Shown one piece after another: positions 57,171-59,065 of a DNA stretch of 64,000 bases. Under the pieces are notes generated by a model. It was not told the DNA's origin and searched no databases. It saw nothing but the letters and a program-made list of their open reading frames with translations. Source of the DNA: an uncultured virus (IMG/VR IMGVR_UViG_3300032292_000851) (taxonomy: Duplodnaviria; Heunggongvirae; Uroviricota; Caudoviricetes); the IMG/VR virus record IMGVR_UViG_3300032292_000851, one strand, 5' to 3'. The translations under genes and the position numbers were made by a program. Position 1 is the stretch's first letter; each line of letters starts with the position of its first letter.

Positions 57171-58622
57171 TTAAAGCTTGATAGCCTTAATCTCATTGTA
57201 AAGAGCCTTCTTATCTAACTCCATCATTTTCATGATGTCAAAAACTTTATCGCTGAAGCCAGCTAAAGCGAAGACATTTTGTTCAGGGAACTGTAAAGTA
57301 CCCATTCCAGCAAGATCCCAAGAGTAAACGTATGGATTAGCACCAAACTTACTCTTATACTTAGAGAACTCAGCAGATGGAGTTGTATAACCCATCCAAC
57401 CTTGCATGTCTGACAAGATAATAACTCTATCATACTTCTTGTTAGCTCTATCAAAGATGGCTTTGAAATTGGTACCACCACCTGAGAATCTGAAGCTATT
57501 TCTAATAGTCATTACAGAATCCATTGGATTATAAGACATATACTTAGCATCAGTAGAGAAAGTCATAACATCACAGTTATTAACTTTGGCCAAGATAGCA
57601 CCAAACAATGAAGCAATCTCAGATGGTTTACCACTCATAGAACCAGAAACATCCATAACAACAAGTGTCTCACCATCAAATACTGGTACGTTAGCAACAG
57701 AAATATCAAGTGCTTGACCAATTGCCATAAGAACGTCTCTTACGTCTTTAGAAGAACCAATCTTACTGATTTCTTCATAAGCAGTTGAGAAACGGAATGG
57801 AAGAACTCTAGAGTTCTTAATCAATCTTTCATCAACCAACATTTCACAAGCTGAACTAACAGCAGTTGGAGATTGAGTGATGATGTTTCTCAAGTTTCTA
57901 AGAAGTGCGAAGTAGCCAATCTTCTTAGTAGAAATCAACTCTGACCAAGCATCGGCTTTCAATTTAGTCAAGTCTTCTTCAGACTCAGCTACTTGACCAG
58001 CTTGTGATAACATAGACTCCCAAGTTTGAGTGTTTTTCAACTCACCTTTAACAAGTGACTCAAGAGCCGCTTTATTTCTAACAGTTGGAATTGGATGAAC
58101 AATGTTAACTAAGTCAACAAGTTTTACTTCTTTGTTATCACCTTTGTACTTAGCCAGTTGGTAACCATCAAACTTATCGAAAGCTTTAGCGAATCCTTTC
58201 TTCAAAGCATTTGGAAACTTAGGACTATCCTTAGAAGTCTTATAAGCTAAGTAATATGACATGATTTCAGTCATATCATCAACACGAACAACTACTTTGT
58301 CGTAGAAGTTTTTACCCCACTCGGCACCCGATAGCTGTGACGTTAATTCACCAGCAAGGGCATGAGTAATACTTCTCATACCGAAACGGTCACGAGAAAA
58401 GATAGCCGCCTTAGCAACAAACTCTTTATCTTTTACTTTAGCAGAAAGTTTTCTCAAATCATCTAATGACGTTTGAGCATTTCTATAAAACTGGTCATTA
58501 ACAAATGATGTTAATAAAAGTGATACTAAAGCTAGTTCATCAGATTGTGAGTAAGCTTGTCCACCTGCTAGGTTTTCAGTTAAAGTCTTTGCCTTTGGCA
58601 TTGTTGTGTTAAATTTTGACAT
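57171..58622 (-). CDS. rsr: Ro60/Rsr-like TROVE-domain RNA-binding protein with vWA domain
   Basis: NLAGGQAY, FDGYQLAKY, TWE, ALLRNLRNI, SRVLPFRF, MIDAS MDVSGSM, GGTN, ILSDMQ. Confidence 0.93.
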   Translation of the reverse strand: MSKFNTTMPKAKTLTENLAGGQAYSQSDELALVSLLLTSFVNDQFYRNAQTSLDDLRKLSAKVKDKEFVAKAAIFSRDRFGMRSITHALAGELTSQLSGAEWGKNFYDKVVVRVDDMTEIMSYYLAYKTSKDSPKFPNALKKGFAKAFDKFDGYQLAKYKGDNKEVKLVDLVNIVHPIPTVRNKAALESLVKGELKNTQTWESMLSQAGQVAESEEDLTKLKADAWSELISTKKIGYFALLRNLRNIITQSPTAVSSACEMLVDERLIKNSRVLPFRFSTAYEEISKIGSSKDVRDVLMAIGQALDISVANVPVFDGETLVVMDVSGSMSGKPSEIASLFGAILAKVNNCDVMTFSTDAKYMSYNPMDSVMTIRNSFRFSGGGTNFKAIFDRANKKYDRVIILSDMQGWMGYTTPSAEFSKYKSKFGANPYVYSWDLAGMGTLQFPEQNVFALAGFSDKVFDIMKMMELDKKALYNEIKAIKL

Positions 58623-58655
58623 AATCTATATTTTAATTTTTAATTTATTTTAAAT

Positions 58656-58694
58656 AAAAAAGACCAGATAACATTTCTGTTTATCTGGTCTTTT
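58656..58694 (-). terminator. intrinsic terminator between the ncRNAs and the TROVE gene
   Basis: minus strand AAAAGACCAGATAA-ACAGAAATG-TTATCTGGTCTTTTTT. Confidence 0.85.
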
Positions 58695-58702
58695 ATAATT
58701 TG

Positions 58703-58982
58703 CGCAAACAAGTAAATTTAGCCTAAGCGTTACAAAGAATTCTCCCGAAACTTTGCCTATAGTTGTAGTGACCATATCACTCAGTTCTTTATTTAAAGGA
58801 AGTTTCTGAATTCCTTGACTAACCTCTTAAAAAGAGTTTCAGGAGTCACCTGGACTTTTTCACTTTAATTCAGTACGTCCTCTCGGCTCCGAATTCAGTA
58901 GCTTTGCTGTCGCTTAGCACTTTTTCTGTCATAGTTTATATTTGAATATATCGAAGTATCTCAAACTATCGCTATGTCTGCG
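58703..58982 (-). ncRNA. long Y-RNA-like ncRNA (about 280 nt)
   Basis: 5' CGCAGACA-U-AGCGA-UAGUUUGAG pairs with 3' CUUAGGCUA-AAU-UUACU-UGUUUGCG; several internal hairpins; GC-elevated; no ORF of 60 aa or more. Confidence 0.75.
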
Positions 58983-58997
58983 TTTTAATTATATTGA

Positions 58998-59065
58998 CCA
59001 GAGTAAGTTATTAAAGAGTGTTTTTTTGAATTACATTTCGAAGTAACCCTTCAATTCACTACTGG
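58998..59065 (-). ncRNA. short Y-RNA-like ncRNA (about 68 nt)
   Basis: 5' CCAG-U-AGUGA-AUUGAAGGGU pairs with 3' ACUCUUUAAU-AAC-UUACU-CUGG; hairpin UUAC-UUCGAAAU-GUAA. Confidence 0.75.

Follow-up and report, generated by a model that had tools for sequence, protein, structure and literature searches.

The 64,000-nucleotide (nt) stretch of DNA analyzed here, called the window throughout, derives from an uncultured virus of the Caudoviricetes (IMG/VR record IMGVR_UViG_3300032292_000851) and carries on its minus strand a gene for a TROVE/Ro60 protein of 483 amino acids (57171..58622). Upstream of this gene lies a 597-nt gap (58623..59219) whose largest open reading frame (ORF) is 41 amino acids long, which agrees with the roughly 600 nt free of ORFs of 60 amino acids or more that had been described in a first-pass annotation. 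The gap holds two tandem structured noncoding RNAs on the same strand as TROVE, located 81 to 443 nt upstream of it. The shorter, unit 1, spans 68 nt (58998..59065) and is supported by its fold, a 20-sequence alignment, covariation, and a score of 89.3 bits with R1, a covariance model built from this unit. The longer, unit 2, spans 280 nt (58703..58982) and is supported by its fold, an alignment termed A2, and covariation in its closing stem. The first-pass annotation had proposed that the two share one architecture, and every strand and bulge was recovered where it had been drawn. As argued below, these RNAs are probably the Y RNAs of the phage's own Ro60 protein.

Judged by its domain content, a TROVE domain (Pfam E 6e-17) plus a vWA domain with a MIDAS motif, the encoded protein is a real Ro60. 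The Pfam matches to vWA_CoxE and vWA_Ro60 are weaker and fall just under their cut-offs, and the protein matches PHROG 850 ('RNA-binding protein') with an E value of 2e-43. Among solved structures, it is closest to the Ro60 of Thermus phage phiLo (9KOP/9L5Y), with E 3e-21 across residues 12-476; D. radiodurans Rsr (2NVO) comes next, and animal Ro60 also matches. The DxSGS...T...D residues of the MIDAS motif are invariant across six homologues. Such proteins are rare in phages, in that 98 of 50,697 phage records match TROVE.

Both RNAs are built on a common core that runs, from the outside inward, through an outer stem (P1), a bulged U, an RGNNA/UUNCY segment (P2), a 3-nt bulge on the 3' strand, a helix of 9-10 base pairs (bp; P3), and the sequence UACUUCG. 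All coordinates that follow are on the minus strand. In unit 1, P1 pairs CCAG (59065-59062) with CUGG (59001-58998), the bulged U is at 59061, and P2 joins AGUGA (59060-59056) to UUACU (59006-59002). The bulge AAC (59009-59007) separates the 3' strand of P2 from that of P3, in which AUUGAAGGGU (59055-59046) pairs with ACUCUUUAAU (59019-59010). The sequence UACUUCGA follows at 59045-59038, with UACUUCG at 59045-59039, and leads into a variable 19-nt distal loop that ends in a conserved A-rich AAAAAAC. In unit 2, P1 pairs CGCAGACA (58982-58975) with UGUUUGCG (58710-58703), the bulged U is at 58974, and P2 joins AGCGA (58973-58969) to UUACU (58715-58711) around a conserved central C.A mismatch. 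The bulge reads AAU (58718-58716), P3 pairs UAGUUUGAG (58968-58960) with CUUAGGCUA (58727-58719), and UACUUCGA is repeated at 58958-58951, with UACUUCG at 58958-58952.

Comparison with relatives reveals which parts of this core are fixed. The bulged U is invariant in both units, whereas P1 (4 bp in unit 1, 7-8 bp in unit 2) covaries freely. Positions 1, 2, and 5 of P2 are always paired, and position 1 changes from A-U to G-C in 5 of 19 unit-2 sequences. In unit 2, the central position of P2 is a nonstandard pair in every one of the 19 distinct sequences; in unit 1, this is so in 5 of 20. Thus, the AGYGA/UUACU helix described in the first-pass annotation exists as a segment, but not as five clean base pairs. 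Similarly, the 3-nt bulge stands, but its strict AAY form does not (AGC, GAU, AGA, and GCU occur among relatives), and only the UACUUCG part of UACUUCGA is near-invariant, since the following A varies. The idea that UACUUCGA forms a T loop was rejected on the grounds that this A is not conserved, that no closing stem covaries, and that a true T arm (GGUUCRAnYCC) is found elsewhere in tRNA-like siblings. UACUUCG is single-stranded in every model. In unit 1, 8 of the 10 bp of P3 exhibit compensatory changes, and in unit 2 this helix consists of UAG/CUA and UGAG/CUYA pairings that flank a small internal loop.

Beyond the core, the RNAs diverge. Across 59 distinct units the distal module varies in size, with a 19-nt loop at one extreme and over 220 nt at the other. 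The module of unit 2 (58951-58728, about 224 nt) folds into several hairpins, none resembling a tRNA arm, and carries compensatory changes in alignment A2 and its RNAalifold table, for example in GUG-NN...NN-CUAC, AGUGA/UCACU, and CAAAG/CUUUG. An alternative pairing was also observed in unit 2, where AUAGUUU of the P3 5' strand (58969-58963) can pair with AAACUAU (58937-58931), located 14 nt past UACUUCG. This pairing is complete (7 of 7) in the window and in several relatives and is compensated in one of them (L014, AUAGAAU/AUUCUAU), and it is absent from other relatives; it may represent a folding intermediate or a switch. One contig from an RNA library (X15) omits 165 nt of the unit-2 module (58781-58947), which agrees with the module replacements seen between relatives in A2.

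The comparative evidence is decisive for the structures of both units. It was drawn from 27 viral loci whose TROVE proteins are 68-98% identical to that of the window, with 500 nt upstream of each aligned; removal of one truncated locus (L015) and seven exact duplicates left 20 distinct rows, and two clipped copies of unit 1 were recovered separately. The window and 26 of the 27 loci have both units upstream of TROVE, the truncated L015 being the exception, and thus the covarying homologues near other TROVE genes that the first-pass annotation had called for do exist. When presented with the 20 unit-1 sequences (alignment A1), RNAalifold returned the described structure unguided, with compensatory changes in 10 of 18 pairs. 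For the full 19-pair structure of unit 1, 97.1% of 380 cells are paired and 10 of 19 pairs have changed on both sides. None of 500 shuffles reached any of five measures, and partners slid by 1-3 columns pair in only 29-50% of cells. For unit 2, RNAalifold recovered the outer stem and inner helices from the 19 distinct rows of A2, and the closing stems are paired in 89.6% of 414 cells with compensatory changes in 8 of 22 pairs. On four of the measures none of 500 shuffles scored as well, but 143 of them did on 'further pair types'; slid partners pair in 23-51% of cells. The aligned sequences are related, so shuffle counts are not probabilities, and the argument for the stems is therefore based on the slid controls and on the number of independent pair types. 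The earlier proposal that the outer helices keep pairing while their sequences change thus extends from the two units to their orthologues.

Single-sequence folding is less telling. Unit 1 adopts the described structure with z = -2.9, and 3 of 200 shuffles fold as well; for unit 2 the signal is weak (z = -1.6, 11 of 200 shuffles as good). With R1, the window and the 26 loci score 66.6-91.9 bits, and the next best match in those 232 kb scores 18.8 bits. The notion that the units look alike only by chance, or because AT-rich intergenic DNA is low in complexity, could draw on the composition of the region, on the weak fold of unit 2, and on the many unrelated coding sequences matched by short patterns derived from the units, which made up 59 of 80 retrieved loci in one early scan. 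It is refuted by the compensatory changes among orthologues, set against shuffled and slid controls, and by R1 scores of 66-92 bits over a background of at most 19 bits, and it can be given practically no credence.

The relationship of these RNAs to known Y RNAs is best seen through a bacterial locus (L174), found in a Bacteroidota metagenome-assembled genome by a TROVE-profile scan of bacterial genomes. Six units precede rsr at this locus, the TROVE protein is 58% identical, and the neighbors include Pirin, SnoaL-like, and RtcB genes. The Rfam YrlA model aligns end to end with the L174 units at 30-46 bits, below its gathering cut-off of 69, and maps P1 on YrlA P1, P3 on the 7-bp helix, UUAC on the YUAY motif, and the region of the bulged U and AG on the GNCGAA-N-G region of YrlA. 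Like the units in the window, those of L174 carry G-U-AGYGA, then 9-10 nt, UACUUCG, and a 3' strand of the UUUCU type. Unlike them, they are situated on a bacterial chromosome, number six, are mostly tRNA-like, and include no long non-tRNA module. At the position equivalent to YUAY in this alignment, unit 1 reads UUAC and unit 2 reads AUAC, whose first base is no pyrimidine. Because L174 shares the signature and YrlA aligns with it over its full length, the units are best regarded as a divergent branch of the YrlA lineage, and the suggestion that they form a wholly distinct or phage-specific class does not hold.

Several other features parallel those described for YrlA and YrlB of Salmonella Typhimurium and of other bacteria and phages (PMC4201824, RF02553). 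These RNAs are encoded on the same strand beside the Ro60 gene, often by two or more tandem genes; their 5' and 3' ends pair into a long stem, the distal module is variable, and a YUAY-type motif, represented in the window by UUAC, comes after the stem. The permuted T-AS-D (T arm, acceptor stem, D arm) domain of YrlA is present in sibling units of relatives, and YrlB, as described, resembles unit 1 in that neither has a tRNA-like domain. There are differences as well. The tRNA-like siblings of the window units reach at most 46 bits against the gathering cut-off of 69, the GNCGAAN0-1G element described for YrlA is replaced by the bulged U and RGNNA with conservation of both stem strands and the addition of UACUUCG, and unit 2 carries its 224-nt non-tRNA module. 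Proximity to a Ro60 gene on the same strand, with the best match of the whole genome at that site, was itself used as a Y RNA criterion by Chen et al. (2014; PMC4201824). Table S2 of that study lists 22 phages, namely Bacillus phage G, Caulobacter phage CcrColossus, and 20 mycobacteriophages, with none from Bacteroidota, and its Table S1 and the legend to Figure S1 include some Bacteroidetes bacteria.

A second point of reference is phage phiLo, whose Ro60 is described as binding two upstream Y-like RNAs, Yrl1 and Yrl2, in vitro by electrophoretic mobility shift assay (PMC12135203). The arrangement of two Y-like RNAs upstream of a phage Ro60 gene is the same as in the window, and this protein is the closest solved relative. 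However, the proteins are only about 25% identical, R1 finds nothing in the phiLo genome, and the single TACTTCG upstream of the phiLo gene is not preceded by a bulged-U core. The phiLo RNAs are defined by CGAA in an internal bulge (PMC12135203), whereas in the window family only the CG is invariant. The window reads UUCGAA in unit 1 and UUCGAU in unit 2, and relatives keep only UUCG. Metazoan Y RNAs are said to comprise a terminal stem with a single bulge on the 5' strand, a 3-nt bulge on the 3' strand, and a distal loop. The units share this layout with metazoan Y RNAs (RF00019) and with Yrn1 of D. radiodurans: the single base bulged from the 5' strand is a pyrimidine, three nucleotides are bulged from the 3' strand, and a distal effector loop is present. 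They depart from metazoan Y RNAs, which carry GGUCCGA with a bulged C and have two base pairs between the bulges rather than the five positions found here; the window units also have no Rfam match.

Linkage to TROVE extends well beyond the loci that were aligned. In all four near-complete relatives (G005-G008), the only strong genome-wide match to R1 adjoins TROVE, and the same holds for two crAss-like phages, with 41.6 bits in cr111_1 and 34.6 bits in csAssE-Sib. Phage G002, whose 236-kb genome is complete, has units in a tRNA array 7-13 kb upstream of a TROVE gene that is on the same strand and 51% identical. Large contigs that bear units and have no TROVE within 2.6 kb likewise encode a same-strand TROVE 7-56 kb away (five of five). 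One locus (L071/G004) carries the pair of units and the terminator followed by a convergent ORF, and no TROVE is found on this 103-kb contig, which is 18% complete. Further afield, R1 gave only a match with E 0.5, far from TROVE, in Vibrio phage Va1 and no match in phiLo, which are the only genomes not associated with Bacteroidota that were tried. This genome-level co-occurrence with TROVE, together with siblings that join the same core to YrlA-like permuted tRNA domains, supports the Y-RNA identity proposed in the first-pass annotation.

Pattern searches extend the family, within limits. A viral scan with a unit-1-type pattern gave at least 134 loci, many in tRNA arrays and some of them chance matches in coding sequence. 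Relative to a reversed-pattern control, extra units were detected in the tRNA arrays of two near-complete relatives (5 versus 0 in G005 and 4 versus 1 in G008), whereas the 4 matches in G002 equal the 4 of the control and only two are credible. With a strict descriptor, 22 of 50 full-unit loci among the matches listed have tRNAs and no TROVE in the locus. This descriptor missed true units, such as those with GUUUC on the 3' strand, and the pattern counts are thus lower bounds rather than a census.

Many siblings carry tRNA-like modules. In L164, unit a of csAssE-Sib, L180, and others, a T arm, a closed acceptor-like stem, and a D arm follow in the permuted order of YrlA. Other siblings hold acceptor-less tRNA bodies in normal order, to which the Rfam tRNA model aligns over positions 9-63, 5-66, 7-64, or 10-63. 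In csAssE-Sib (L167, OR575929.1, 1990-2460), the annotated tRNA-Tyr and tRNA-Lys are enclosed by Y-type stems with a bulged U, GGUGA...UUUCC, and UACUUCG, and further tRNA bodies inside such stems are present in L047 (1427-1523), L196, and L180. Several of these enclosed bodies have Lys-like (CUU/UUU) or Tyr-like anticodon loops, and several have no acceptor stem. Counts of phage tRNAs may therefore include modules of Y RNAs. In Bacteroides phage PhiCrAssBcn24 (L169, 3920-4800), several units of the same architecture lie downstream rather than upstream of TROVE. UACUUCA or UACAUCA replaces UACUUCG in these units, P2 is AGUGU/GUUCU, and their R1 scores reach no more than 19-20 bits; in at least two other stretches of this phage, the UUACUUCA motif occurs alongside tRNA-like arms, with D-arm-like and T-arm sequences.

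Between unit 2 and TROVE lies an intrinsic terminator (58656..58690, minus strand), located 33 nt before the start codon. Its stem (58690-58681/58671-58662) encloses a 9-nt loop and is followed by a U tract (58661-58656). The 10-bp hairpin and U tract are kept with compensatory changes in all 20 aligned relatives. A consensus terminator scan did not report it, since the loop exceeds the 8-nt limit of the scan; the hairpin is drawn, however, in a sub-threshold alignment to SdsR. In two relatives (L008 at about 2385-2470 and L021 at about 2410-2480), an insert of about 70 nt that is richer in GC lies between the terminator and the TROVE start, and the two inserts are alike. Upstream of unit 1, two conserved ACTTTTT(G) boxes about 20 nt apart constitute a candidate promoter (59101..59130, minus strand), of which the AAACTTTTT block is conserved in the alignment of the upstream region. 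These boxes may correspond to the -33/-7 TTTG elements of Bacteroidota, and a scan for sigma-70 promoters gave none on the minus strand. The units themselves are separated by an AU-rich linker, UCAAUAUA (58990..58997, minus strand), with a TATAAT-like hexamer at 58993-58988. The linker is bridged by three contigs from RNA libraries (X19, 58936-59049; X15, 58952-59087; X17, 58473-59031), and it may be the processing site of a precursor that contains both units.

One search identified 20 sequencing runs that contain the stretch, 6 of them RNA libraries from five studies. Contigs cover unit 2 in all four RNA runs that were examined, each from a different study. Contig depth is unsuited for ranking genes, and no quantitative conclusion was drawn from it. 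In one run (X16), no contig covers unit 1, which was not used as evidence, and the TROVE contig of this run derives from a diverged strain (51 differences). A further feature of these data is a head-to-tail joint, 58989->58655, that defines a 335-nt RNA species (58655..58989, minus strand) composed of a 7-nt leader, unit 2, and the terminator. The joint connects the last base after the terminator U tract to a point 7 nt before P1, and it was seen in two separate studies. In X16, it lies in a 365-nt contig that has no differences from the window and overlaps itself by 30 nt, as a closed 335-nt cycle would do when assembled with k=31. In X19, a 255-nt contig extends past the joint by 41 nt, plus 52 nt that belong to a variant strain.

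This joint could represent a covalently circular RNA, a head-to-tail cDNA or library chimera arising from an abundant RNA in which P1 keeps the two ends together, or a tandem duplication in the DNA of some strains. No tandem duplication was seen in the more than 40 DNA loci examined. RtcB was considered as a circularizing enzyme and rejected, as PF01139 has no match in any of five near-complete relatives; ATP-dependent RNA ligases are encoded in all five relatives tested. In G002 (L148, G002:162867-167363, 1-2997), TROVE, a protein with an endonuclease VII domain, and an Rnl2-type RNA ligase follow one another on one strand. This pairing of TROVE and ligase resembles the bacterial rsr-rtcB arrangement, except that the ligase is ATP-dependent. 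The window itself encodes a 211-amino-acid nucleotidyltransferase (24304-24939, minus strand) beside a tRNA-Cys gene (25578-25649, minus strand). This protein matches the ATP-dependent ligase domain PF01068 with 35.8 bits and RNA_ligase PF09414 with 25.8 bits against a cut-off of 27, and it may be an RNA ligase.

It is conceivable, though rather unlikely, that unit 2 exists as a covalently closed 335-nt circle and that the family forms a modular phage toolkit in which one Ro60-docking stem is combined with interchangeable baits. An ATP-dependent RNA ligase would connect the 3'-OH generated at the terminator with a 5' end produced by processing, and the baits would be presented to RNA-targeting defenses or repair enzymes of the host. 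Candidate baits would include the tRNA-Lys-like and tRNA-Tyr-like bodies, the permuted tRNA, and the 224-nt domain of unit 2. If this proves true, the RNA would be the first circular Y RNA, a nuclease-resistant scaffold for Ro60.

Several observations weigh against the assignment of the units to Ro60. An Rfam scan of 58500-59300 with E <= 10, a check named in the first-pass annotation, matched neither Y_RNA (RF00019) nor YrlA (RF02553); the matches it did give were all below threshold and driven by the terminator, with SdsR ranking first (26 bits versus a cut-off of 38). At gathering thresholds, the whole window gave tRNA-Cys only, and no YrlA match above cut-off was obtained in five near-complete relatives. 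The sequences GGUCCGA and GNCGAAN0-1G, which are thought to contact Ro60, are both absent; at the equivalent positions unit 1 has CCAGUAG and unit 2 has GACAUAG. Neither unit has a T-arm sequence or tRNA-like domain by inspection or by the Rfam tRNA and YrlA models, so the earlier statement that they lack both the metazoan motif and a YrlA cloverleaf is borne out. The protein contact may be the bulged stem or UACUUCG, either being a candidate. Many siblings reside in tRNA arrays several kilobases from TROVE, which would fit a tRNA-related role independent of Ro60 equally well. One contig (X17) runs from 59031 to 58473 through unit 2 and the terminator into TROVE, and so either termination is incomplete or the contig derives from DNA. 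Indeed, contigs from RNA libraries may include carried-over DNA in general.

Two other explanations make use of these same observations. The units might work without Ro60 as decoy or processing RNAs of tRNA arrays, with the stem serving as a handle for tRNA-processing or defense enzymes, the modules acting as decoys or sensors for host anticodon nucleases, and the adjacency of TROVE reflecting nothing but the neighborhood of an RNA-repair operon. Such a role would account for the units in phage tRNA arrays, including the 22 or more full-unit loci with tRNAs and no TROVE, for the acceptor-less bodies with Lys-like or Tyr-like anticodon loops, for the annotated tRNA-Tyr and tRNA-Lys of csAssE-Sib, and for the RNA ligases of all five relatives, one of which is encoded two genes from TROVE in G002. 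However, the unit-bearing contigs that were tested encode a same-strand TROVE even though this gene is rare in phages, the two units in the window carry no tRNA-like module, and the stem falls, by alignment, on the part of the YrlA stem that binds Ro60. We therefore consider this explanation improbable. Furthermore, it and a Y-RNA identity may both hold, since YrlA itself mimics a tRNA and is also a ligand of Ro60.

The units might instead be a cis-acting 5' leader of TROVE, an attenuator or riboswitch-like element that controls read-through. Their position directly upstream on the same strand, the terminator 33 nt before the start codon, the X17 contig that reaches the TROVE start, and the alternative AUAGUUU/AAACUAU pairing with its compensatory L014 variant would all be expected of such an element. 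Yet units occur without a downstream TROVE in L071, kilobases away in tRNA arrays, and downstream of the gene in PhiCrAssBcn24; they come in two to six tandem copies with exchangeable modules, and no anti-terminator pairing with the terminator stem was found. Because the terminator is conserved, the L071 pair stands without TROVE, and the G002 units are placed in a tRNA array, the units are better viewed as an independent gene than as a leader, and cis-acting control is very improbable. When all of this evidence is weighed, we assign a probability of roughly 0.8 to the conclusion that the units are Y RNAs of the phage's own Ro60 protein and belong to a Bacteroidota-type branch of the YrlA/YrlB lineage. 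By sequence and structure, unit 1 would therefore be a minimal form, and in unit 2 a large non-tRNA domain would replace the tRNA mimic. The phage probably acquired its rsr-Y module from Bacteroidota.

If the units are Y RNAs, a plausible course of events can be outlined. Both units would be transcribed together from the promoter upstream of unit 1, and transcription would stop at the terminator before the Ro60 gene. The precursor would probably be cut in the AU-rich linker to yield an RNA of about 70-90 nt and the 335-nt RNA, and the 5' and 3' ends of each would pair into the long stem. The docking site for the Ro60 ring would comprise the bulged U, the RGNNA/UUNCY segment with its fixed mismatch, the 3-nt bulge, one helical turn, and the single-stranded UUACUUCG. 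The bulged stem and UACUUCG are about one helical turn apart and would thus face the same side of the helix, which would suit a single protein footprint. The distal module would be the effector end, formed by a 19-nt loop in unit 1, a 224-nt multi-hairpin domain in unit 2, and a tRNA-like domain in siblings. By analogy with Deinococcus Yrn1, Salmonella YrlA and YrlB, and phiLo Yrl1 and Yrl2, the RNAs would gate Ro60 or tether a partner enzyme, and the outcome might be a phage particle for RNA surveillance or repair in the infected cell; the first-pass annotation had suggested ribonucleoproteins with possible roles in RNA repair, decay, or anti-defense. Tethering to PNPase is reported for Yrn1 (PMC4201824), and the phiLo study proposes a similar role for Yrl1 and Yrl2 (PMC12135203). 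In crAss001, TROVE is described as an early gene (PMC8375218, PMC10136315), which suggests a role at takeover that might, by extension, also apply to the phage of the window.

The window comes from a giant freshwater phage, and its remaining gene content is that of phage DNA, with genes for PhoH, ribonucleotide reductase, a RecA-like protein, a tail-fibre chaperone domain, and a DNA methylase. The closest named record is a 634-kb 'uncultured phage' (75.6% DNA and 82% protein identity), and the relatives are IMG/VR contigs of up to 483 kb. G001, the nearest record in a search for the genome of the window, has no TROVE. An ORF of 2400 amino acids with teneurin-type NHL repeats is located at 6044-13246 (minus strand). 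A GC-rich hairpin (AAAAAACCCACUCAAUUGAGUGGGUUUUAUUUU) at 57136-57170, between the convergent ORF 56392-57135 (plus strand) and the TROVE stop codon, resembles a bidirectional terminator. In relatives, the TROVE gene is sometimes interrupted. In L017, L018, and L020 (2501-4630), the match covers 2130 nt instead of the usual 1449, and in L015 (1-505) an ORF with an HNH-type motif recognized by eye (CxxC...HH...CxxCHH) precedes the 3' part of the gene, which suggests a mobile intron, intein, or homing endonuclease. In addition, PHROG 1314 ('HNH endonuclease') weakly matches the vWA region of the TROVE protein in the window.

That Y RNAs lie beside Ro60 genes, including those of phages, is already known. 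As far as could be checked, the stem signature is new, as are the finding that huge phages, crAss-like phages, and phage tRNA arrays contain it, the long non-tRNA module, and the head-to-tail joint. Among the literature matches listed, no paper joined crAss-like or huge phages with Y RNA or YrlA, and the passages on crAss-like phages mention the TROVE protein only; that of crAss001 is termed 'a possible ribonucleoprotein component' (PMC8375218). A signature backed by covariation allows RNA partners of TROVE to be found where the Rfam YrlA model fails, and it provides evidence that some 'tRNA genes' of phages are tRNA bodies within Y-RNA stems. The circular form, if true, would add a new mode of RNA biogenesis in bacteria or phages. 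Animals, a few bacteria, and a few phages are known to have particles of Ro60 and Y RNA, and crAss-like phages are among the most abundant viruses of the human gut. Those that grow on Bacteroides offer a cultured system for the function of a viral Ro60 ribonucleoprotein.

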